Positions 5,092 to 53,400 of a stretch of 64,000 bases of DNA are shown piece by piece; positions within the stretch are counted from its first letter, which is position 1; every line of letters begins with the position of its first letter. The stretch spans positions 160,001 through 224,000 of the forward strand of contig BK006941.2 in assembly GCA_000146045.2 (NCBI GenBank), in the 5' to 3' direction. Origin of the DNA: TPA_inf: Saccharomyces (taxonomy: Eukaryota). Under the pieces are notes generated by a model. That model made no database searches and had not been told where the DNA came from. It was given only the letters and a program-made list of their open reading frames with translations. Position numbers and translations under genes: made by a program.

Positions 5092-7249
5092 ATTCTTCAA
5101 AGCTTCCTTTTTATATGCAGAATATGTGCGCAGCAATTTCAAGGCGTAGAGTACGAGTCACTAGAGGCTCGAGCATTATATACCACTTACAAGTAGTGTT
5201 TCTTATTGGGGACACCTGTCCTAACAATGTATGGCTTTATATACCGCGCGGATAAGTAAGGCACACCCGCTCTTCGTATAATACCCGCACAAAAGATTCA
5301 GGGACCGGGTATGCTCAACGAAAAAAATAGCCAAGATTGTTGCGAGTCCTCATCAATGAGGACATACAGAGAATAAAAACAGCCATATTTTGCTTGCTGA
5401 AGGACGTTGTGCAAACCGAAGATATCAGCGGTAGTCTTTATAGGACCCGTTGGTTTATTATATACAAAGGGATCTTTAAAAGGTCCGGTGCGAGGGGACG
5501 GGTGGAGATGGAAGTTATCAACCAAATGCAATTTATCCGAAGCGCAAAAAAAATAAAGGTGCTCCGATGGACCTTAGAAAGGAACTCCAAAATGCTGTGA
5601 TGGACCGGCGAGGGCGGTAAACGAAACTACCACATTGCATAAGAAACAAAATGTACGGCCCCTTCTACACAATCTATTTATGGTTTTCGTCTTGACCTCC
5701 TAATTACTTAATTAATGATTACATTTCTTAAAAGCACAAAAATAAAGTAGCTACCCTTCTTAAGCCATAGTAGTTAAAGCCTCAAGTGCATTGATAATCT
5801 CCTGACCCTAGGTCGTCTTTCGCGTGGGCTATCGCCACCTAAGGAAAGGATTAAATGGAGCAAGTATTGGAAATGTAAAGAAATTGCAGAATGTTCTGAT
5901 TACTTTTCATCACCCAAAGAGTCCATACTACCACTACCACCAACCATTGCCGGTGAGCGGTTTCTTGCTCATTAACATGACGTACAAGGGAACGGAATGT
6001 CCCTTGTACGTTGTAATGTCTTTTGCTCTCGTAAAGAAGCCTATACACGCCCCTTCCTTCCGCCCTTCGGCATCCGCTGCCAACTGGGTGGGGGCTCAAT
6101 GGATCTCTTTACTCTGGCCCTTAGAAGCCTTCTGAAATTCTCGGCTTAGGCATCGAACGATGAAGAAACTAACTAAAAATATACGCCATTTTTTTGGGGA
6201 GGGGGGGCCGCACTGAAACGCGAAATGCCAAAAAAACGCGAAACGCCGCAGTAAAAGGTCAGTACCGCGCAAAAAATACAAAAATGACAACAATATTGGC
6301 CTTTCTTTTCCTAAAGCAATTAACTGGAAAGCGAGGTTCTAAACATCTGGCCAACCCCTAAATTTTTAATAATTCCGAAGCGGGATATATTGCATCTGGC
6401 AATCTGAAAAGCAATAGAAAGAAGCGGCCTAGTACTGCATAGTGAGTGATAAAATATACATATTAAGGTTGGGGAAATGGTACGCGCTTTCAAGTAGCTA
6501 GAAAGATCTGAATGTTCTGAAGTACGGTTTGGATTTATACGCGGTTATTTCCTGGACTAGCTTAGAGCCAATTAATACTGACGATTGCCTCTTTTTCTTT
6601 ACCGTTTATGTATGCTGTATGCCCTTTTCATGTATAAAAGAAGGGTAATTTAAAAAAGTTTATAATCATCCAGATTCCTTATTTTTTTTCTTCTTTCGCC
6701 AGGTGTTTTACCCAGCTAAGACTAACCTTGTGGTTCAGATTACACTAGTATTGCCGTCCGATATTACAATTCTGAAATCAGTTTTCTTGTGATCATTCTT
6801 TTTTTCTCTCTTGCCATTCTTAAACGTGGCCTACAAGAACTCTTCTTCTTTCCTGGTTCGCATCTGTGTTAAACGTATAGATTTTCTTACATAGAGGCCT
6901 AAAAAGCATAATAGGTGGTTTCCTTTCAATATATATCTGAAACATTGAATATACTGAACACAATTCACATTTCAAAACCTTGGGTACTGTTGAGTCAACA
7001 TCAAGATCAGCCTATTTCATAATTTACTTTATCTTTTCACACAAAAAGAGAACAGGTAAAAAAGAACAGATCTGCTAGCCCCGAGAAGATCATTGACACA
7101 TCATTGATTGGCAAGTTAAGTAATAAAAGAAAGGTAATAACATCAAGAAGTCAAGCGCCTTGAAATTACTAGATTTGGACTACGGATCAGCAAAAGCCTG
7201 CTACTACAACCGCCACTTTTACTATTCCTTAAGATAAAAGCTAAAAAAC

Positions 7250-7271
7250 CAAAAAAAAAAAAAAAAAAACC
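7250..7271 (+). repeat. Poly(A) homopolymer tract (about 21-22 A) about 80 bp upstream of the MPT5 ATG
   Basis: Direct reading. A poly(dA:dT) tract is typical of a nucleosome-depleted promoter element. Confidence 0.9.
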
Positions 7272-7351
7272 TCCTCAACTCCTCTCCAACACATAGTAAA
7301 GCGAATTCTACGCAAATTTATAAATCAATTACGATTTTTCCAGTTTCTCTT

Positions 7352-10300
7352 ATGGTATGTATTATCTCTTAATTCCCAATATTTTTCTTCGCCAATGGAG
7401 CATAAGCTTTAACGGGATCTTCTAACAACAAATAGCATAATAACCAAAAACCAGCTTCAGTGGGATCAGCCTATCGACACGCCTTTTTTAGCGGTCTAAC
7501 AATCTCCGTTTATGTCGTATGGAATTTCTGATACTTGACCCTACCTTATTTCTCGAATATGCCTATAAGGATTTTCTCGAAAGAAGGGCTTCGGGAAAGA
7601 GGCGCCTCAGGCAAAAATGAGCAAAAAAAAAAAAAAAAAGAAAAGATTCGAAGATCTATGAAAAATTTATGCAGATTCGTTGAGAGTTATAAGGATTTTA
7701 CTCTTTATGGTTATAGGTTTCATTCTAAAATCAAGCATAAATTTTGTGTTTTGTCTTCCTCTTTTCCTGTCCTCTTTTTTTGCCATCCTCTGTCGCCATT
7801 GAAGTCGAACTTTATAGATAGATTTACTCTTGATTCTCACGCATCTCAGGCCACCTGGACACTGTACATGGTTGTGATTGTTCTCTTTCTCAGTTATCGA
7901 AATTGATCCTAGGCTTATACTCCAAAATCGGCTCTGCACACGCCTTATTTTTGTGGTTTCACTTTACTAACACAACATTCTTTTATTCAATCAGATCAAT
8001 AACGAACCATTTCCATCTGCCGACTCAGCATCGATTTTAACTACGTCTACATCAAATAACTCCTTAATGTCTTACAATCATCAGCCTCAACTATCTATTA
8101 ACTCCGTCCAATCACTCTTGGAGCCCGTGACCCCTCCGCCTTTGGGCCAGATGAATAACAAAAGAAACCATCAAAAGGCTCATTCGCTTGATCTCTCTGG
8201 TTTTAATCAGTTCATATCATCGACACAATCTCCCTTGGCTTTGATGAATAATACATCAACATCGAATTCTGCTAACTCTTTTTCCCCGAATCCTAATGCT
8301 GCTAGCAACTCCACTGGGCTTTCAGCCTCAATGGCAAATCCTCCAGCCATTCTACCATTAATCAATGAGTTTGATCTGGAAATGGATGGTCCCAGGAGAA
8401 AATCAAGCCACGATTTCACGGTTGTTGCTCCTTCGAACTCTGGTGTCAATACCTCCAGTTTAATTATGGAAACACCATCCTCTTCAGTGACTCCTGCTGC
8501 ATCTCTCAGAAATTTTAGCAATAGTAATAATGCTGCTTCCAAATGTGGAGTGGATAATTCGTCATTTGGTTTGAGTAGCTCAACGTCTTCATCTATGGTC
8601 GAAATCAGCGCACTACCCCTTAGAGATCTGGATTATATCAAACTTGCCACTGACCAGTTTGGCTGCCGTTTTCTTCAAAAAAAATTAGAAACCCCCAGTG
8701 AATCCAATATGGTGAGAGACTTGATGTATGAACAAATTAAGCCATTTTTCTTGGACCTTATTTTGGATCCGTTCGGTAACTATTTGGTTCAAAAACTATG
8801 CGATTATTTAACTGCCGAGCAAAAGACATTATTAATACAAACAATATATCCAAATGTTTTCCAAATATCAATCAATCAGTACGGAACTCGTTCCTTACAG
8901 AAAATTATAGACACTGTCGATAACGAAGTTCAAATCGATCTCATTATTAAGGGATTTTCCCAAGAATTTACTTCGATTGAGCAAGTGGTTACTTTGATAA
9001 ACGATCTTAATGGTAACCATGTGATTCAAAAGTGTATTTTCAAATTCTCGCCATCAAAATTTGGTTTCATCATAGATGCTATTGTAGAACAAAATAATAT
9101 CATTACCATTTCTACCCATAAACATGGTTGTTGCGTACTACAAAAATTACTAAGCGTTTGTACTCTACAACAAATTTTCAAAATTTCTGTGAAAATTGTG
9201 CAGTTCCTTCCTGGATTAATCAACGATCAGTTCGGTAATTATATCATCCAATTTCTGTTAGATATCAAAGAATTGGACTTTTACTTATTGGCTGAGTTAT
9301 TTAACCGTTTATCCAATGAATTATGTCAACTATCTTGTTTGAAGTTCTCCTCAAATGTTGTGGAAAAATTCATTAAAAAATTATTTAGAATCATTACTGG
9401 ATTTATTGTTAATAACAATGGGGGTGCCTCCCAAAGGACTGCAGTTGCTTCTGATGACGTGATTAATGCTTCTATGAACATTCTTTTGACTACCATTGAT
9501 ATATTCACAGTCAATTTAAATGTGCTAATCAGGGATAATTTTGGTAATTATGCGTTACAAACGCTATTAGACGTTAAGAATTATTCTCCTCTGCTTGCTT
9601 ACAACAAAAATAGTAACGCAATTGGGCAAAACAGCTCTAGTACATTGAATTACGGTAACTTTTGTAACGATTTTTCATTGAAAATTGGTAACTTGATTGT
9701 CCTTACAAAAGAATTACTTCCAAGTATTAAAACTACATCCTATGCAAAGAAAATTAAGTTGAAAGTTAAAGCTTATGCAGAAGCCACAGGTATACCATTC
9801 ACTGACATATCTCCTCAAGTCACTGCAATGAGTCATAACAATCTTCAAACGATTAACAACGAAAATAAGAACCCCCATAACAAAAATAGTCATAATCATA
9901 ATCATAATCATAATCATAACCATGCTCACAATAATAATAACAATAATAATCAAAAGAGTCATACCCGTCATTTTTCTTTACCAGCTAATGCTTACCATAG
10001 AAGAAGTAACAGCTCTGTAACCAATAATTTCTCAAACCAATATGCACAAGATCAGAAAATTCACTCTCCGCAACAAATTATGAACTTCAACCAAAACGCA
10101 TATCCCTCGATGGGAGCACCTTCTTTCAATTCTCAAACTAACCCACCATTGGTAAGCCATAACTCGTTACAAAACTTCGACAACCGCCAGTTTGCAAATT
10201 TAATGGCACATCCTAATTCTGCTGCACCAATCCATTCGTTCTCATCATCTAACATTACCAATGTGAATCCTAATGTTTCAAGGGGATTTAAGCAGCCTGG

Positions 10301-10571
10301 ATTTATGATGAATGAAACCGACAAAATTAATGCTAATCACTTCTCGCCATACTCTAATGCAAATAGTCAAAACTTCAATGAATCTTTTGTGCCTCGTATG
10401 CAATATCAAACGGAAGGTGCAAACTGGGATTCAAGTTTGTCAATGAAGTCGCAGCATATTGGTCAAGGCCCATATAATCAAGTTAATATGAGCCGCAACG
10501 CTAGTATTTCCAATATGCCTGCCATGAATACCGCTAGAACATCTGATGAACTTCAATTCACTTTGCCATAA
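7352..10571 (+). CDS. MPT5: Pumilio-family (PUF) RNA-binding protein Mpt5/Puf5, 859 aa. Spliced gene: exon 1 is 7352..7354 (ATG only) and exon 2 is 7995..10571.
   Basis: Eight Pumilio repeats (FGNYLVQK, GNHVIQK, FGNYIIQ, FGNYALQ). An ATG is followed immediately by GTATGT at 7355. TACTAAC branch point at about 7965-7971. The CAG 3' splice site at 7992-7994 joins in frame to ...INNEPFPSADSASILTTSTSNNSL upstream of the track ORF start at 8067. Confidence 0.93.
7355..7994 (+). other. MPT5: Spliceosomal intron of MPT5 (640 nt). GTATGT 5' splice site, TACTAAC branch point at 7965-7971, CAG 3' splice site.
   Basis: Canonical yeast splice signals. The reading frame across the junction is continuous (7995 to 8067 is 72 nt, 24 codons). 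The intron contains an A17 tract at about 7622-7638. Confidence 0.9.
9891..9950 (+). repeat. MPT5: (CATAAT)n hexanucleotide microsatellite encoding an (HN)n repeat, followed by an AAT/AAC run encoding poly-Asn, inside the MPT5 CDS
   Basis: The sequence reads cataatcataatcataatcataatcataaccat, then ...aataataataacaataataat. The protein reads HNHNHNHNHNHNHAHNNNNNNN. Confidence 0.9.
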
Positions 10572-15526: not shown

Positions 15527-18500
15527 CTAAGTAGATTCGTCTTTTTTATTATCACGGTCAGCAGCATTGCTTTGTGACTTTGGCGATTGACATTCAGTAG
15601 AGTTTGTGCCAGAAGAAGGTTTAATCTCGCCTTTCCTACTGTTCTTTGTTTCTCCCCCAATAGTTGAACCATTGCTGTGCTGTTTACCATTAATGAATTT
15701 TTTCAAATCTTGGCTTTCCTTTTCATTGACAACAATACGACTTCCTTGATCTGAAACATTTGTCATAGGAGGTGGAGGTGGGAAGGAAATCGGTTGTCCA
15801 AACCCATGTGGTGCTGGTGGCGGAATAGACATTCCATTCATATTAGGGTAAGGCATCTGGTGAGGGTGTAATGGGTGAAGACCATTAGGATGCGTCATAA
15901 AACCTGGGGGAATATTGTACGGCAAACCAACATCTGCAACATCATTCGCTCCAGGAATAGGACCCCCAACCACATTCATTGGGTGAGGTGGAGTTGGGAT
16001 ATTCAAATTACTGCCTATACCATCAGAATATTGATTTGCAACGGCATTGAAAATAGATCCAGCAACAGTTGGATTATCAAGCGGTGCTTTTTCAAAATTG
16101 GCCAAATCAACTTGCACGTTTTCACTGCTTTTCTGAGCTGGTCTTTTTAACAAAACTTTCTTTGCGGGTTTGGAATCTTTTTGCGATCCCATGCTCTTGT
16201 TGTCTACACTTTCAGAATTCTTTTCATTGGTATCCTTTTTGATAAAATTCAATAAATCATGTGCCCTTTCTTTTCTCAGTTTTTCTTCAGATTGTTGCTT
16301 TGAAGGAGTCTTGTGAGCAGTTTTGGTATTATTGTTCCTATTGTTAGATTGCTTTTTCTTTTCCAAAGCCTTTTTGGAAGCCTTGGAGTGATAAATGAAC
16401 TGCCTGTTAGTAATATTCAATAAGAAAGAGGCATCAAGCCCTAAGCCTCTATTCGTGCGCAACCTGCCGCCAAAATTATTACCGGCCACGATTTCATGAT
16501 CAAATAAGACCTGAATTGATAATGATGAACTGAGAGTAGTATAGCCAACAACTGTACCCTTTGAGAAAATTGGTACCTTACCAGAATCTTGGATATAAAC
16601 AACACGGTCACCCAAATCGAACTTTTGACTACGTAAGAGTGCAAATGATGATCTTGGATTCAAAACAGCCTCACGAGGAACTTTGGCTAACTGTTTTCTT
16701 TCATGACCTTCGATGTTAGCTGCGTATTTCATGATATGATCTTCCACGGCAGCAATCGATGTCTTAGTTAAGGAGTCAGACTCCAAAGATACCGCGATAA
16801 ACTTCGATGAGACATACTTTAGCCATTGTTTGATACCATCTAATAAATTCATGGCATCCTTAGTGGAAGTATCGGGGAAAAGATCTTCCAAAACTGGGAT
16901 ATCATTACCTACCTTGGACAACCTGAAAAAAAAATCTGGGAAAGTTTGTCTATACTCTTTCAGTAAATTTAGAGTTAAATTTGAGTATTCCCAGCCCCTA
17001 GGGTTCCTCCTCGCGTAACCTAAAACCTTTTGGTGTCTAGCTTCGAACTTAACCGGGATACCAACATTGATATGCTTCCCAGTAGCGTCAGTAATCATGA
17101 ACTTGGAAGTAATCTTAGACAAAAACAAGGGGTGTAAGTGCATGTTCTTGGACACAATATAAGACGGATAATATTTAACGGCTTGATGATCCATTTGTAA
17201 CCTTTCTTTGCCGATGGTGGGCTCACTATCCAAAAACTTCTTTTCTACAGTAATTTTTAGTCTGCGGTCACTGCTGTAACCGTCAATAGTAGTTTCACCA
17301 CCATAGGCATAATCACCTAAGAAAATAACTTTTGAATTCAATGGAAATTCCTCTTCAATAGGAATGGGTCCTCTTTCTTTATATCTTTCATCCTCGTTGA
17401 CAACAGATTCAACAACCAGTTGCAATGGATAGTAATCTGGGGTAGGGCTAAAGGTCTTAATATAACCACCATCAGAGTCTCTCACCAAACCAGTCACTGG
17501 AAAGACGGTAGCAATGGCTTCCATAGGTCCTATTTTAACAGCTTTCTGTTTAGCATACATCCTTAGCATTGAATTCTTCAAACTATTGAAAAGTTTTTTG
17601 TCCTGGGTTTCCGCAGGCTTCGTTATGAATCCGAACTTTTTCTTATCATTGGACTCCTGATATTCATAGATAGTCTTACCATCCGTTAAAGAGACCAATT
17701 TGGATTCTCTTAAATATGGCCATCTTGTATAAATCACTTTGTTTAAATGCCTCTTGGAAAAGTCCTCCAAAGTAACATTATTCGTTTTGTATATGTCAGT
17801 TATTTGTAAGACCATTGATTGTTGTTTAGAAGGTTGTTGGAAAACCATTGTCTCATTGTACTCCAGTGAACTAGTAAATGGTAAAGACAATAACGTGGGG
17901 AAACCCGCCAGCATTTCGGCACCGAGTTTAGCATTAGGTAATAAACCATACCGAATCTCGGAGCTGTCCAATGGGATGGTGATGTACTCTTTTTCGACAC
18001 AATGATTGTGTTCAATATCAGAAAAAATGCCGCCCAACGGACTCTTATAAAGGTTATCAACTTGAGGATTAAAGGAATATATCAAGTCCTTGCCAAATTG
18101 ATTTCTCGTTTTTTCTTCAGGTGATAACTTGCGCAAATAAGGTTGCATAGCCTCAATCAACCTTTTTTCATCTACAAACGATATCAAAACCACAGCTTCC
18201 CAATCAGCTGTCTTGCCGTTTTTATCAAGTTGAACCTCAGCGGGATAGAAATCGTGGATTGGCGACTGTTCATCGTACATTAATGGCCTAAAGGCGGGAG
18301 GTATCAGATTTTTGGACCTTTCCGGTAAAACTGCCATTAGTTGCTGGAATGGAGTAAATGGTTTGCTCAAATCAAATTCAATGTCTTGATCTAAACCCTT
18401 GGCTAAGTCGGAGATTCTTGGTGCATAATGGTGCGGATAGTACCACGACCAAGATGGACATCCTCTATAATAATAATATAGAACCCATTGTAAACCTTCA

Positions 18501-20113
18501 ACGTAGTCTTTAGCAAGATCTCTCACTTTTTCTTCACTGTCTGTCGTAAATTTTAACTTGTCGTGATAATACTCATGCTTCCAACGTTCAAACCTTTCAT
18601 TATAAATCGTTTTTTCAGTTTCCAATTCTTCTTTGTCCTCCACGATGATAGCATTTTGATATTTTTTTATTGTTTTCCTGATAGAATTAACACGATTTTG
18701 AAATTCTTCTTCTGTTTCATCAGGATTAATAGAATCAAGATCCATTTTTAGCGAATAACTACCTTTGGATTTGGAATGCGTTATAAAAAGACCCAAATCA
18801 AAAGCGAATTCTTTTAAAAATTCTAAATGATCTTTCATGTCTAAGTCCTTAGGTAACTCTAAAGTTGGAATTTCTTCATCTGGTAAATCAGGCGATAATT
18901 TTTCCTGTAATTGCTCCATCAACCATGGTTTTATACTTCCAATTAATTTCTTCTGTTGTTTTACCAGTAATTTTTTACCAACCCTCTGTCTTTTCCTTTC
19001 ACCCTCCAAAGAAATATTCTCTAATTGCTTGTTGAACCACTCAACGTCTATATCATCCTTTTCGAAATTTAATAACTCAAATTGAGACAGATAATTTAAC
19101 CAGACACCTAATCTCTTTAAATTTATTTTACCATGTTCATTAATGTAGCCATCAGTATGTAAAAGAGCTTCTTTGAACGTTTGTAACAAAACGGGAAATG
19201 CTCCTTTGTTAAGGTGCAAATCTGGCAAATTGGGCAAGAAATCATTACCAATGACGAACATGACAAGAATAAAATCATCCAAAATACGTTCAAAATTGTA
19301 TTCAAATTGCATTTCATCGGCAATTTCTTTGAATTCCAACTCCATGTATTCTCTTAATAAAGAAAGATGTAATAAGTAGAAATTTTGATGTTCAAGCGAT
19401 TTTTTTTCACTATTTCTTCTACCAAATGTCACTTCTTCTCTCAATAACGCAAAATGTGGCCCATGAGTAGACAAACCCAGCATAATCAAATCTGCGTCAA
19501 GACCGTAAATACAATGTCTCGTATTCTGGTTGAAATCCTTTTGGGATTTTAAATGCCTTATAAAGTTCATGATCTTGTGTTCACCTTCACCTGGAACTTC
19601 ATGGCCAGAAAATATGATTTGCACTTCCCTCCATTTGGAATCGTTAGAAATCTTGTCGTGAATAAAATATTGTAAGTTTTTGGTCAATTTGGCCATAAAC
19701 TCCGTACCTGGAGTAATAGAATTCGAATCAAATGGCTCACCCTTAGGAATCTCGTCACCATTCTCAATAGCCTTCTTCAAGGCTTTTTCTGCATCCATAG
19801 CGGTTCTGAATCTACGAGCTCTTTGTTGATTCATCTTGGCACGAGGGGCCACACCATCAATAGCCATGTAGAAAATCTTCTTGGGCTTGATTGTTTGAAA
19901 AAGGTGATCGATATACGTACAGATTTTTGCAAAAACCTCTTCTTCAGTTAATCGCTTGGTTACATCATCGTCGTTACCATGCGTACAATTATGTAAAATC
20001 GAATTCATATCCAGGTATAAGTTATCAAACTCAGGAATCTGTGTTCCCTCAATAAGCTGTAAAATCATGGGCCATCTTTCTGAGATGTACCTGAAAAATT
20101 TTGGAATACCCAT
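15527..20113 (-). CDS. XRN1: 5'-3' exoribonuclease Xrn1/Kem1, 1528 aa
   Basis: N-terminus MGIPKFFRYISERWP with the XRN 5'-3' exonuclease N-terminal domain, plus a long basic, Pro-rich C-terminal tail. Confidence 0.95.
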   Translation of the reverse strand: MGIPKFFRYISERWPMILQLIEGTQIPEFDNLYLDMNSILHNCTHGNDDDVTKRLTEEEVFAKICTYIDHLFQTIKPKKIFYMAIDGVAPRAKMNQQRARRFRTAMDAEKALKKAIENGDEIPKGEPFDSNSITPGTEFMAKLTKNLQYFIHDKISNDSKWREVQIIFSGHEVPGEGEHKIMNFIRHLKSQKDFNQNTRHCIYGLDADLIMLGLSTHGPHFALLREEVTFGRRNSEKKSLEHQNFYLLHLSLLREYMELEFKEIADEMQFEYNFERILDDFILVMFVIGNDFLPNLPDLHLNKGAFPVLLQTFKEALLHTDGYINEHGKINLKRLGVWLNYLSQFELLNFEKDDIDVEWFNKQLENISLEGERKRQRVGKKLLVKQQKKLIGSIKPWLMEQLQEKLSPDLPDEEIPTLELPKDLDMKDHLEFLKEFAFDLGLFITHSKSKGSYSLKMDLDSINPDETEEEFQNRVNSIRKTIKKYQNAIIVEDKEELETEKTIYNERFERWKHEYYHDKLKFTTDSEEKVRDLAKDYVEGLQWVLYYYYRGCPSWSWYYPHHYAPRISDLAKGLDQDIEFDLSKPFTPFQQLMAVLPERSKNLIPPAFRPLMYDEQSPIHDFYPAEVQLDKNGKTADWEAVVLISFVDEKRLIEAMQPYLRKLSPEEKTRNQFGKDLIYSFNPQVDNLYKSPLGGIFSDIEHNHCVEKEYITIPLDSSEIRYGLLPNAKLGAEMLAGFPTLLSLPFTSSLEYNETMVFQQPSKQQSMVLQITDIYKTNNVTLEDFSKRHLNKVIYTRWPYLRESKLVSLTDGKTIYEYQESNDKKKFGFITKPAETQDKKLFNSLKNSMLRMYAKQKAVKIGPMEAIATVFPVTGLVRDSDGGYIKTFSPTPDYYPLQLVVESVVNEDERYKERGPIPIEEEFPLNSKVIFLGDYAYGGETTIDGYSSDRRLKITVEKKFLDSEPTIGKERLQMDHQAVKYYPSYIVSKNMHLHPLFLSKITSKFMITDATGKHINVGIPVKFEARHQKVLGYARRNPRGWEYSNLTLNLLKEYRQTFPDFFFRLSKVGNDIPVLEDLFPDTSTKDAMNLLDGIKQWLKYVSSKFIAVSLESDSLTKTSIAAVEDHIMKYAANIEGHERKQLAKVPREAVLNPRSSFALLRSQKFDLGDRVVYIQDSGKVPIFSKGTVVGYTTLSSSLSIQVLFDHEIVAGNNFGGRLRTNRGLGLDASFLLNITNRQFIYHSKASKKALEKKKQSNNRNNNTKTAHKTPSKQQSEEKLRKERAHDLLNFIKKDTNEKNSESVDNKSMGSQKDSKPAKKVLLKRPAQKSSENVQVDLANFEKAPLDNPTVAGSIFNAVANQYSDGIGSNLNIPTPPHPMNVVGGPIPGANDVADVGLPYNIPPGFMTHPNGLHPLHPHQMPYPNMNGMSIPPPAPHGFGQPISFPPPPPMTNVSDQGSRIVVNEKESQDLKKFINGKQHSNGSTIGGETKNSRKGEIKPSSGTNSTECQSPKSQSNAADRDNKKDEST

Positions 20114-33706: not shown

Positions 33707-36403
33707 TCAATGTGAAATATATTGAAATGCAAAACTGATATCATTGTAATGATGCTCGTTTTTTAGTAGATGATCATTTGTTTTTTCCAATGCGTCATGG
33801 TTCAAATGATTCCAAGTTGTCGCATCACCATATAACATTGCAGGGGCTCTCTTTAATTGTTTACCCTGAGCATTACAACGTTTACAATGGTATGTTTCGT
33901 GTGTTTCACATATCGTATTCTCATTTTTTTGAAACAACTGTCTTAAATTGTCAGAACTAAACAACCTTTCAACGTCTTCTTTCGCATCGACCACGCATGA
34001 ACTCAAACTCATTTTCATAGATTGTCTTTGAAAGATTTTTTCCTCTATGGTACCAGTCGATATGAATCTGTAAATGAAACAATCCTTTTTTTGACCGTCT
34101 CTCCAAACACGTGCCAAAGCTTGTTGATCAGCAGCAGGATTCCAATCCGGATCCATCAAAATTAATCGATTTGCACCAATCAAATTGATACCACACCCAC
34201 CTGCTTTAGAACTTAAGAGGAAGATGAACTCTTGGCCTTCAGGATCGTTGAACCTATCCACCAATTTTTGTCTTTTGTTAATTGACATTGTACCATCCAA
34301 CCGTACAGCACTGTAGTGCTTATATCTACACATTTTTTCAATGAGGTCCAAGGTTTGGGTATAGTTGGAGATCAAAACAATCTTATCATCGGATTCGGTC
34401 TTTATCTTATGGAGAAATCTTTCCAAAATGGAAAATTTAGCTGAATATTTTGTTTGTACGTCCCTGGCTTTTGAACCCGGCATATTATAATCGTCAGGTA
34501 GTTCCAAATCATCTTCATCGTCAAATTCATCTTCAAAATTCAAGAGATTAGGGTGATTACATAGCTTCTTTAAAATACCAATAGCCCTCAGGGGCTGAGA
34601 CCCACCAACACCTTTTACTACTTTTTTCACTTCTCTTGACTTAATTAATTTATTGTAGAGCTCGTTCTGCAACGGCTTCAAGTTTACGAAAATAACGTGC
34701 TCATACTTGCAAGGCAAATATTTGGCCAAAATATCGTTAGTACGACGGATAATAAATTTGGAGACAATGGTAGATAGCTTCTGTAATTGCGCCTCGCCCT
34801 TTGTGATTTCTTTATCAGTAGCATCAGCATCACGCCCTCGCAAAATTGGATTCTCAAAATTTTTCCTAAATTCTGCTCTGGAACCTAATAAGCCAGGATT
34901 CGAAAAACTCAGTAGAGCAAAATATTCGGAAAGATCGTTTTGAATGGGTGTACCAGATAATATAACTCTTCTAGGACAACTGATGCTATCCAAAGCTGTG
35001 AATGTTAAAGAGTCACCGTTTTTCAAACGGTGCCCTTCATCTGCCAGCATTAAACCCACATTGCAGTTTTTCAATTGATCAACATTTCGACGTAATGTTT
35101 CATACGATATGATTAAAACGGGCTTAACAATATTTCTTCCCTGTGCCTGAGCCCAGGCATGAATAGCTTGCGAAACTGTTGTATTACCACCACCCATTGA
35201 AGATTTTTTCCCATCAACCGCTAACGGAGTTAGAGTATTGGGACCCAACCATTTTATCAATTCATTAGCCCAGTTGTTGACTAAAGAAGATGGACAAACA
35301 ATGATACATTTGTCGATAAGTCTTTTACCCTGCGGGCCCTGTCTTAATAATGTCCACATAAGTGCTATACACTGCAATGTCTTACCCAGCCCCATTTCAT
35401 CGGCCATGATGCAGCCGTAGGCCCCTCTATTGTTTTGTTCAGTCTTTTGAGATTCAGTAAGTGCCTTCTCGTCGCTCTTTAAGGGATCTTCGCTTGAAGT
35501 GTTGAACGCCTCAGCTTCTAAGTAATCTTTCATGACAAGCCCTGTGACACAACGGTATAAGAATCTCACCCCTTCGACTTGATGGGGTCTTAAAATCTTG
35601 GCCAGTTTTGGATCAATAACCACAGGGACACTAGCAAATTTCTTCTTGTTTTCCGCAGAGTTTTCCGAATCACCGAGTAGCTCACGTAACGGTTTGTTTC
35701 TCACACCATTTGTCATCAAAGCTGGATGGCGTCCTATTCTTTGTGTGGGTCTTTCTTCCTGGCTATTCTTTTCCTTGTTAATATTATCCTTTTCCTGTGT
35801 GCTTTTGATCATTTTCTTTGATTCTTCTTCCTTGTTATCCATAGATGTGTCATGGACAATCATTTCACCGTCAACGGACGGGTCATAAAGCACTATGGCA
35901 AATTCGTCTGTAGGGTCATGTAGAGGTCGAGGTTCTGGAGTAATTTTTTTTTTCATTCCTAACGTTAATGGCAGACTGTGTCTTTGTACATATCCCTTGA
36001 TTGGCACAGTGAAAGATCTTCTCAAAGTGTACTGGATATGACTCAGTCTTGTCGGATCCTTGGCCAACCTTTGAGCACTAAGAGCATCCTTCCGTCGTTT
36101 AGTCAACTGAGAAAAACTTATGTCTTGGCTGTTGTACTCTGCTTCGTCCGCATTTATATCCAAGCCGGAATAACATACAGTCGCTGATCTTTTCCTCAAG
36201 CTCCTTCCTCCTACGATATTATCAGACCCGGTGGCGATTCTACCAGCAGCGGGCGGGATGTGCGTGTTCTTGTACGGGACCCTGAACGGTTTCGTTAGTC
36301 GGTTCACCGAGTCTTGTACGTTAATAGGCCTAGGTACCAGTCTCGGCCGTTCACCGGCTCCTATTCCATTTGGTGGTCTGTCTGGTAATCTGCGTCTTGC
36401 CAT
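33707..36403 (-). CDS. RAD54: Snf2/Swi2-family DNA translocase Rad54 (homologous recombination), 898 aa
   Basis: N-terminus MARRRLPDRPPNGIGAGERPRL. SNF2 ATPase motifs (ILADEMGLGKT, DEGHRLKN) and a helicase C domain. Confidence 0.95.
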   Translation of the reverse strand: MARRRLPDRPPNGIGAGERPRLVPRPINVQDSVNRLTKPFRVPYKNTHIPPAAGRIATGSDNIVGGRSLRKRSATVCYSGLDINADEAEYNSQDISFSQLTKRRKDALSAQRLAKDPTRLSHIQYTLRRSFTVPIKGYVQRHSLPLTLGMKKKITPEPRPLHDPTDEFAIVLYDPSVDGEMIVHDTSMDNKEEESKKMIKSTQEKDNINKEKNSQEERPTQRIGRHPALMTNGVRNKPLRELLGDSENSAENKKKFASVPVVIDPKLAKILRPHQVEGVRFLYRCVTGLVMKDYLEAEAFNTSSEDPLKSDEKALTESQKTEQNNRGAYGCIMADEMGLGKTLQCIALMWTLLRQGPQGKRLIDKCIIVCPSSLVNNWANELIKWLGPNTLTPLAVDGKKSSMGGGNTTVSQAIHAWAQAQGRNIVKPVLIISYETLRRNVDQLKNCNVGLMLADEGHRLKNGDSLTFTALDSISCPRRVILSGTPIQNDLSEYFALLSFSNPGLLGSRAEFRKNFENPILRGRDADATDKEITKGEAQLQKLSTIVSKFIIRRTNDILAKYLPCKYEHVIFVNLKPLQNELYNKLIKSREVKKVVKGVGGSQPLRAIGILKKLCNHPNLLNFEDEFDDEDDLELPDDYNMPGSKARDVQTKYSAKFSILERFLHKIKTESDDKIVLISNYTQTLDLIEKMCRYKHYSAVRLDGTMSINKRQKLVDRFNDPEGQEFIFLLSSKAGGCGINLIGANRLILMDPDWNPAADQQALARVWRDGQKKDCFIYRFISTGTIEEKIFQRQSMKMSLSSCVVDAKEDVERLFSSDNLRQLFQKNENTICETHETYHCKRCNAQGKQLKRAPAMLYGDATTWNHLNHDALEKTNDHLLKNEHHYNDISFAFQYISH

Positions 36404-50415: not shown

Positions 50416-53400
50416 ATGTCATCTGAGGATATCATTTATGATCCTCAGTTCAAACCTGTTCAGGGAATCTACGAGAATAGATTAAGACAATTTATTGATA
50501 CTGGTGGGGATTACCATGACTTAAATTTACCCAAGTTTTATGATAAGAAGCGCATTTCATTAGATCATGATCACGTTAAGGTTTGGTGGTACCAGGTTTC
50601 TTTTGAACGTGGATCTTCCCCTGTTTCCCCTGATAAGAGGCCATCTTGGAAATCTATTATTGAACGTGACAAGAAGGGTGAATTGGAGTTTAGAGAAGCG
50701 AACATAAATCAGCCCTTTGGACCCAGTTGGTCTACCACTTGGTTCAAGGTGAAAATCTCTTTGCCTGAAGATTGGGTTAAATCAAACGAGCAACTACTTT
50801 TCCAATGGGATTGTTCTAACGAAGGAATTGTCATAGACCCAAAGACTCTAATCCCTGTGACTGCTTTTTCAGGTGGTGAAAGGACTGAATATGTTTTACC
50901 GAAAACATCGGATGGGAAACATTTCTTTTACATCGAAGCTGGTAATAATGGTATGTTTGGCTGCGGTGCAGGATCCACTATAAATCCACCAGATGATAAT
51001 AGATTTTTTCATTTGAGAAAAGCTGATATCGTTTGGCCCGATCTAGATGCTCGTGCATTGTATATCGATTTTTGGATGCTAGGGGATGCTGCAAGAGAGC
51101 TACCTGGAGACTCCTGGCAAAAACACCAGGCAAGACAACTAGGCAATGCAGTTATGAATCTTTTTGACCCGAATGATCGTTCAAGTGTTCGTAAATGTCG
51201 TGAATTACTACAAAGGGAATACTTTGACTCCTTTTTAGAAAGCAGTAAGGTTTACGAACAAGGTGAATCTCAAGTTTTAACAAATGTTTATGGTATCGGC
51301 AACTGTCATATAGATACAGCTTGGCTATGGCCATTCGCAGAAACAAGAAGGAAAATTGTGAGATCTTGGTCTTCCCAATGTACTTTAATGGATCGCTTCC
51401 CAGAGTATAAATTTGTTGCTTCACAAGCCCAACAATTTAAATGGTTATTAGAAGATCATCCCGAATTTTTCAATAAAGTGTTAATTCCAAAAATTCAGCA
51501 ATCTCAGTTTTTTGCTGTTGGTGGTACATGGGTTGAGAATGATACCAATATTCCCTCAGGGGAATCGCTGGCAAGGCAATTCTTTTTTGGTCAAAGGTTT
51601 TTCTTGAAGCATTTTGGTCTCAAGTCAAAGATATTTTGGTTACCTGACACCTTTGGTTATTCTTCGCAAATGCCACAACTTTGCCGCTTATCTGGTATTG
51701 ATAAATTTTTGACTCAAAAGCTTTCCTGGAATAACATCAACAGTTTTCCGCATAGCACGTTTAACTGGGCAGGGATTGACGGTTCTCAATTATTGACTCA
51801 CATGCCTCCTGGTAATACGTATACAGCAGATTCACACTTCGGTGATGTTTTGCGTACTGCCAAGCAGAATAAGACACCAGAATATTACGGCTCCGGTTTA
51901 ATGTTGTACGGAAAGGGTGATGGTGGTGGAGGACCAACTGAGGAAATGCTGCAAAAAATGAGGCGTATTAGATCCATGAATAACAGAAATGGTAATGTTA
52001 TTCCAAAGTTACAAGTTGGTATAACGGTTGATGAATTTTATGATGACATTTTGAAAAGGACTAACCAAGGCCATGATTTACCCACATGGAGTGGTGAATT
52101 GTATTTCGAATTTCATAGGGGGACATACACCAGTCAAGCTCAGACCAAAAAATTAATGAGGTTGTCCGAAATTAAACTACATGATTTGGAATGGATAGCT
52201 GCCAAAACATCAGTTTTATATCCCGATTCGTATAAATACCCTTCCAAACAGATTAACGAACTTTGGGAGAATGTTTTGTTATGTCAATTTCACGATGTTC
52301 TACCAGGATCATGTATTGAAATGGTATATAAGTATGAGGCTGTCCCTATGTTGCACAACGTTGTGAAAGAATGTACTTCCTTAATAGACAAAACCGTTCA
52401 ATTTCTTCAGAGTCAGAGTAAGGCAGATTTGGTTGAGATGAGAACATTAACTTGGTCAAAACCAGAAAAGGTTTCTGAGGAGTGCTCGTTGAACGGTAGT
52501 TACACGTCCTCTGTAACCGGGTACGATGACTATATAGTCCTTGCCAATGGGAAGTTGAAAGTTATCATTTGCAAAAAGACTGGGGTGATCACAAGCATTA
52601 CGGATGAAACTTTGGGGGTAGAATACCTGGACACGGAACATGGCAGAAACAAATTGGGCGCCAACCAGTTTGTTATTTATGATGATAAACCTTTGGGCTG
52701 GCAGGCTTGGGATACTGAACTTTATTCCGTCAACCAATACAAGTATGTAACAAAGCCGAAGAAAGTTCAAGTTTCCTGCAACACAAAAGAGAAATGTGCT
52801 GTTGAGGTCATTTTTCAAATTTCCGAAAAATGCAAAATCAAATCAGTGATATCACTCAATGCAACTGCGGTCACTGATGCTAAATTAAGTAAAGTAGACA
52901 TTTCTACGACGGTAGAAAACTGGGATGCTAGAAACAAATTTTTAAAAGTTGAATTTCCCGTTAATATTCGGAACGATTTTGCTTCGTATGAAACTCAATT
53001 CGGGATTACCAAAAGACCAACACATTATAATACCTCATGGGACGTCGCTAAATTTGAGGTTTGCCATCACAAATTTGCTGATTATTCTGAATACAGCAAG
53101 GGTGTTTCAATTTTGAACGATTGCAAATATGGGTTTTCCACACACGGTAACTTGATGAGATTATCATTATTAAGGTCACCAAAGGCTCCGGATGCGCATG
53201 CTGATATGGGTACTCATGAGATAAAATATGCTATCTATCCACATAGAGGAGCACTATCAAGCGACACTGTTAAGCTCGCTCACGAATTCAATTATTGCTT
53301 CAAATACAAACTCCCCAAAGATATTGGCATGAATTTTGATGACATCATAAGCATTTCCGGAGATGAGAATGTCATTTTGTCTAACATAAAAAGAGGCGAA

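Follow-up and report, generated by a model that had tools for sequence, protein, structure and literature searches.

We are highly confident that the plus strand of the 64,000-nt stretch of DNA analysed here (the window; GenBank contig BK006941.2, positions 160,001 to 224,000 of the forward strand) carries, from position 7352 onwards, the 5' end of the Saccharomyces cerevisiae gene MPT5/PUF5, also named HTR1 and UTH4 (systematic name YGL178W, reference strain S288C), and that the gene opens with a coding exon made up of a single ATG, followed by a canonical 640-nt intron. Joining position 7354 to 7995 creates an AUG-to-AUC junction and a spliced coding sequence of 2580 nt (7352-7354 plus 7995-10571), whose translation, a methionine followed by INNEPFPSADSASILTTSTSNNSL and then by an open reading frame (ORF) of 834 amino acids, comes to 859 residues in total. 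In an exact-sequence look-up, this product was identical in 859/859 residues to NP_011337.1 (UniProt MPT5_YEAST), which is the protein that an initial annotation of the sequence had put together from the same three parts. The program-made list of ORFs for this region holds 8067..10571 alone (plus strand, 834 amino acids), which begins at Met26, ends with the stop codon 10569-10571 and accounts for the rest of exon 2, with the PUF repeats. The 72 nt of exon 2 that lie ahead of it (7995-8066, plus strand, codons 2-25) were missed. The initial annotation had recognised both this omission and the internal nature of the Met codon at 8067, and the identity of the spliced protein with the reference bears it out. 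Naive ORF calling shortens Mpt5 by 25 residues, and the main use of the finding is in checking the quality of annotations: the one-codon exon and the intron are correct, and they are already known from the reference annotation and the literature. The term one-codon exon applies to the coding part only, as the actual exon 1 also includes the 5' untranslated region (5' UTR). We take the window to be chrVII 160001-224000 and the coordinates of MPT5 in SGD to be chrVII 167352..167354 and 167995..170571; the sizes of the ORFs around MPT5 are consistent with the SGD map.

The signals that define the spliceosomal intron (7355-7994, plus strand, 36.7% G+C) can be read directly from the sequence. The initiator ATG (7352-7354), which is the entire coding part of exon 1, is adjoined by the 5' splice site GTATGT (7355-7360); the branch-point sequence TACTAAC lies at 7965-7971 with the branch A at 7970, and the 3' splice site is the CAG at 7992-7994, all on the plus strand. 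Yeast introns end in a YAG, usually the first AG to occur at roughly 10-60 nt from the branch A; the CAG here lies 24 nt from that A, and no other AG stands between it and the branch point. Followed upstream from 8067, the frame of exon 2 stays open to 7971, where the TAA of TACTAAC itself (7968-7970) supplies an in-frame stop. The sequence features by which a U2-type GU-AG intron is recognised are therefore all found, i.e., GUAUGU, UACUAAC, a YAG 3' site at the first AG, and a restored conserved frame. Each of these elements, as well as the length of 640 nt and an A17 tract inside the intron (7623-7639), had been named in the initial annotation and is present where it had placed them. An Rfam search with permissive filters across 7000-8200 on both strands gave zero matches at E <= 1.

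We compared the window with the loci of S. kudriavzevii, S. uvarum, S. eubayanus and a fourth Saccharomyces contig in a 5-species alignment. The initiator with its 5' splice site (ATG|GTATGT), the branch-point sequence TACTAAC and the acceptor with the start of exon 2 (CAG|ATCAATAAC) are all invariant in the four other loci, and the orthologous introns measure 630-659 nt with identical ends. Alignment to YGL178W and to the Saccharomyces orthologues had been proposed as a check on the gene model, and it returned an identical protein and a conserved ATG|GT arrangement; the physical coupling of the initiator codon to the 5' splice site likewise holds, with the ATG directly before GTATGT in all five species. 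In the 72-nt extension upstream of Met26 there are zero indels, the fraction of invariant columns is 0.83, and the 12 variable columns are distributed 2/1/9 by codon position, a periodicity that the intron blocks do not display. At the protein level the extension varies solely at residues 7-9 (F7Y, P8S, S9T/A), with one substitution in each other species (n=4). Because the variable sites fall 2/1/9, indels are absent and the peptide is nearly unchanged, the substitution pattern of these 24 codons is, as judged from the alignment, the hallmark of a translated region.

With the AUG directly against the 5' splice site, the spliced mRNA is the only possible source of full-length Mpt5. Its synthesis is strictly splicing-dependent, in a layout that is established and fairly common among yeast intron-containing genes. 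Read from the ATG at 7352, the unspliced RNA encodes MVCIIS followed by a stop codon, and such RNA would be expected to be degraded by nonsense-mediated decay. Going by established yeast splicing biology, U1 would pair with GUAUGU, UACUAAC would be recognised by BBP/Mud2 and then by U2, and the first AG downstream of the branch point would serve as the 3' splice site.

The two ends of this long intron could be brought together by a conserved candidate stem. RNAalifold, run on the five-species alignment, predicts 13 bp between a 5' arm at 7396-7408 (plus strand, 41 nt past the 5' splice site) and a 3' arm at 7912-7924 (plus strand, 46 nt before the branch A). In the alignment of the stem 96.9% of cells are paired, and 11/13 pairs never vary. 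The duplex of the 120-nt end regions of the intron has a computed energy of -46.6 kcal/mol, compared with -32.5 +/- 4.1 kcal/mol in dinucleotide shuffles, of which 1/500 was as low. Pairing of the region of the 5' splice site with that of the branch point aids splicing of long yeast introns, and the predicted stem, which would place the two sites ~90 nt apart, may act by shortening the effective distance between them.

Upstream of the initiator, the 719 nt at 6633-7351 (plus strand), which we presume to comprise the promoter-proximal region and the 5' UTR (non-coding exon 1), contain 0 ATGs compared with 10.7 expected from composition. The closest upstream ATG is at 6630, and the ATG at 7352 is the first one after this leader. 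In six other species the equivalent ATG-free leader measures 425-739 nt. The intron, by comparison, holds 10 ATGs versus 10.3 expected. Given these 719 nt devoid of ATG, the 5' UTR is probably long; it is from this stretch that we infer the extent of transcription. Taken together, the ATG-free leader and the non-depleted intron indicate, at the level of base composition, a long leader that is kept clear of upstream AUGs and then a sequence that would be removed before translation. The leader also contains an A19 tract (7251-7269).

Several observations weigh against this account of the gene. The splice junction and the transcription start, as given here, rest on the literature and on reading of the sequence. 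The start context at 7352 is weak, with C at -3 and U at -1, and Met26 (8067) carries the favoured AUGUCU context; some initiation at Met26 may thus occur through leaky scanning past the weak-context AUG. Most public orthologue models from outside Saccharomyces have their start at the Met26 equivalent (MSYNHQPQ...) or right beside it, with two extra residues (MM) before it in the K. marxianus model and a start three residues further in (MHQPQ) in that of L. thermotolerans. Finally, compensatory (double) changes were not found in the zipper stem in the five-species alignment, where the pairs are nearly invariant and covariation is for that reason uninformative.

A different start is the alternative that fares best, and we consider it improbable. 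It accepts the intron as real but has it act as a 5'-UTR intron: the main start would be an ancestral Met26, the upstream AUG would be weak or used in parallel through leaky scanning, and the 859- and 834-residue forms would coexist. The poor context at 7352 beside AUGUCU at 8067 and the starts of most outgroup models fit this alternative, as does an apparent 5'-UTR intron upstream of the equivalent Met in K. marxianus. Purifying selection on the protein encoded by the extension (2/1/9, no indels) argues against it, however, as does the upstream ATG, which is in frame after splicing in 7 species (5 Saccharomyces, Naumovozyma dairenensis and K. naganishii) and has no other AUG before it in a long leader; moreover, several of the outgroup models appear to have simply missed exon 1.

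The outgroup loci bear on this last point. In N. dairenensis (L005), ATG|GTATGT at 2175 and AACTAAC at 2865 are followed by a CAG and an in-frame Ser/Asn-rich extension, and in K. naganishii (Kazachstania/Huiozyma; L009), ATG|GTATGT at 2108 and TACTAAC at 2880 are followed by an in-frame extension after a tandem acceptor, TAG/CAG, whose sites are 3 nt apart and both in frame. The ATG-free leaders of these two loci are 425 and 592 nt long, respectively, and their public models, judged against the arrangement at L005 2175-3001 and L009 2108-3001, probably miss the one-codon exon. K. marxianus (L010 2261-2918) has GACG|GTATGT...TACTAAC...CAG; since its exon end carries no ATG and in-frame stops follow the 3' site, an apparent 5'-UTR intron occupies the equivalent position. 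V. polyspora (L011 1931 to about 2975), with GTATGT at 1931 and TACTAAG ~45 nt before the Met, may have a similar 5'-UTR intron. The loci of Z. rouxii (L007), L. thermotolerans (L008) and A. aceris (L012) contain no intron signals, and those of the Nakaseomyces bracarensis locus are ambiguous.

From these comparisons we put forward, tentatively and as a scenario that is rather unlikely to hold in full, that the ATG|GT arrangement is derived. The ancestral gene would have had a 5'-UTR intron, of the kind apparently retained by K. marxianus and possibly by V. polyspora, and a start at MSYNHQ; exon 1 would have come to end in an ATG in an ancestor shared by Saccharomyces, Naumovozyma and Kazachstania, turning leader into a Ser/Thr/Asn-rich extension of 24-33 residues. 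Under the same scenario the N. dairenensis and K. naganishii models lack their first exon, S. cerevisiae may make both M1 and M26 forms, and, separately, the conserved core of the intron (see below) might be an element restricted to Saccharomyces. The distribution of the start codon hints that its gain may have taken place within the post-whole-genome-duplication yeasts.

It is very unlikely that splicing is absent altogether, with transcription starting inside or after 7355-7994 and the 834-residue ORF as the real protein. Several automated S. cerevisiae annotations do give the 834-residue form, e.g., that of CEN.PK113-7D, and a promoter role is conceivable for the conserved blocks within the intron. 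The curated reference model, nevertheless, is spliced, perfect splice signals are kept across species while adjacent intron sequence diverges, and the extension shows a coding-type pattern. Spliced mRNA and intron primers are also on record in the literature: Hooks et al. 2016 (PMC4937481) report reverse transcription PCR of spliced MPT5 mRNA, an RNA-seq study (PMC8394074) treats the MPT5 intron as spliced, with no obvious intron retention, and a preprint from the Ares laboratory (bioRxiv 10.1101/2024.03.26.586863) includes an MPT5 intron amplicon in a study of intron circles. Public S. cerevisiae models of MPT5 (P0001-P0015) come in lengths of 834, 859, 862 and 930-963 amino acids; the longer ones, which begin at the intronic ATGs 7617 or 7868 and use non-canonical splice choices (e.g., MVVI|INNEPF), look like gene-predictor artefacts.

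That the motifs co-occur by chance and mean nothing biologically has a negligible probability: bare GTATGT...TACTAAC...AG combinations do arise (~1.35 expected per window by chance, and two found on the minus strand, either in a long ORF or antisense to one), but the full pattern, i.e., ATG plus GTATGT, TACTAAC within 1.1 kb and a first AG that leads into an ORF of 100 codons or more, is found a single time in the window (at MPT5) and in 0/300 first-order Markov simulations of it, and the signals are invariant across species and lead to an exact match to the reference protein. Individual motifs are more frequent: ATGGTATGT has 3 occurrences in the window versus 0.5 expected, and TACTAAC has 11 versus 6.1 expected. 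The two additional ATGGTATGT sites (33887-33895 and 50948-50956), one on the strand opposite an 898-aa ORF and the other within a 1083-aa ORF but out of its frame, were rejected as introns and regarded as chance matches, neither having a downstream TACTAAC. Both minus-strand combinations were likewise rejected in view of the chance expectation. The one with its 5' site at 16817 lies inside a 1528-aa, XRN1-sized ORF (15527-20113), and the one with its 5' site at 2615 is antisense to an 897-aa ORF (65-2758).

An unusually conserved core makes the intron itself the more interesting feature, ahead of the one-codon exon, and earlier publications have already pointed this core out. It spans 7535-7760 (plus strand) and is split by a poly-A tract that ranges from about A8 to A17 across species and is A17 in the window. 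Among the five Saccharomyces species the invariant fraction is 0.31 in the 5' part of the intron (7361-7534), 0.73 in the first part of the core (7535-7622) and 0.85 in the second (7640-7760), which includes invariant runs of 34 and 29 nt; a second conserved block at 7850-7935 (plus strand), with an invariant fraction of 0.79, holds the 3' arm of the candidate stem. The core blocks are about as conserved as the neighbouring coding extension, and the fold of 7636-7772 has z = -3.1. Some automated gene models translate an ORF in the core from the ATGs at 7617/7658. We rejected a protein-coding core on two grounds: the poly-A tracts differ in length by amounts not divisible by three, and in S. 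uvarum and S. eubayanus the frame is broken by a 2-nt deletion within the block. In six outgroup loci, blastn-short and relaxed blastn searches of the upstream regions returned poly-A matches only, and a purely visual look through the conserved intron blocks for Puf5 self-binding sites (UGUA...UA) revealed nothing convincing. The stretches 7535-7760 and 7850-7935 may together act as a functional element, RNA or DNA, that is confined to Saccharomyces. In Hooks et al. 2016 (PMC4937481), the MPT5 intron is one of 14 for which three methods predict an RNA structure that is conserved across Saccharomyces sensu stricto. The near-invariant core with a stable fold, found here independently, resembles these structures, and 7535-7760 probably corresponds to the one predicted for MPT5, an overlap that we presume.

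The product of the gene is an RNA-binding protein of the PUF (Pumilio/FBF) family. Its Pumilio repeats match Pfam PF00806 (PUF) in 5 stretches with E = 1.3e-42, and a further Pfam domain, PF22493, is matched with E = 1.5e-13. A His-Asn/poly-Asn low-complexity run, HNHNHNHNHNHAHNNNNNNN, occupies residues 634-653 (9891-9950); its length differs among the Saccharomyces orthologues, the S. kudriavzevii version being far shorter.

The MPT5 arrangement can be placed among known systems. Zipper stems in long yeast introns, for example that of RP51B/RPS17B, are said to have been described by Goguel and Rosbash in 1993 and by Libri and colleagues in 1995. The candidate stem of MPT5 shares their layout, from the 5' splice site to the branch region, and is conserved in 5 species; it differs in being known from prediction, and compensatory changes do not add support to it. 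With respect to the S288C reference, YGL178W is the same gene, identical over 859 residues, with the intron and the 3-nt coding exon as published and nothing different.

As for the one-codon exon, the initial annotation had called it rare, which is an overstatement: PMC3226532, whose Table 2 gives the first exon of MPT5 as 'AUG' with a length of 3, counts 20 S. cerevisiae genes with exactly AUG as coding exon 1 and about a dozen more with 1, 2 or 4 nt. The others with AUG alone include RPL30, RPS17A/B, RPS24A/B, RPS27A/B, RPS30A, RPL35A/B, MND1, BET4, BOS1, DCN1 and QCR9 (PMC3226532 Table 2). MPT5 resembles these genes in that the ATG adjoins the 5' splice site and the protein is encoded by the spliced mRNA only. 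Most of them, however, are ribosomal-protein genes, whereas MPT5 is among the few non-ribosomal ones and has a long intron for a non-ribosomal gene. In RPL30, the adjacency of the ATG and the 5' splice site serves autoregulation by the L30 protein; this autoregulation is a feature of RPL30, and it is in layout alone that MPT5 is likened to it.

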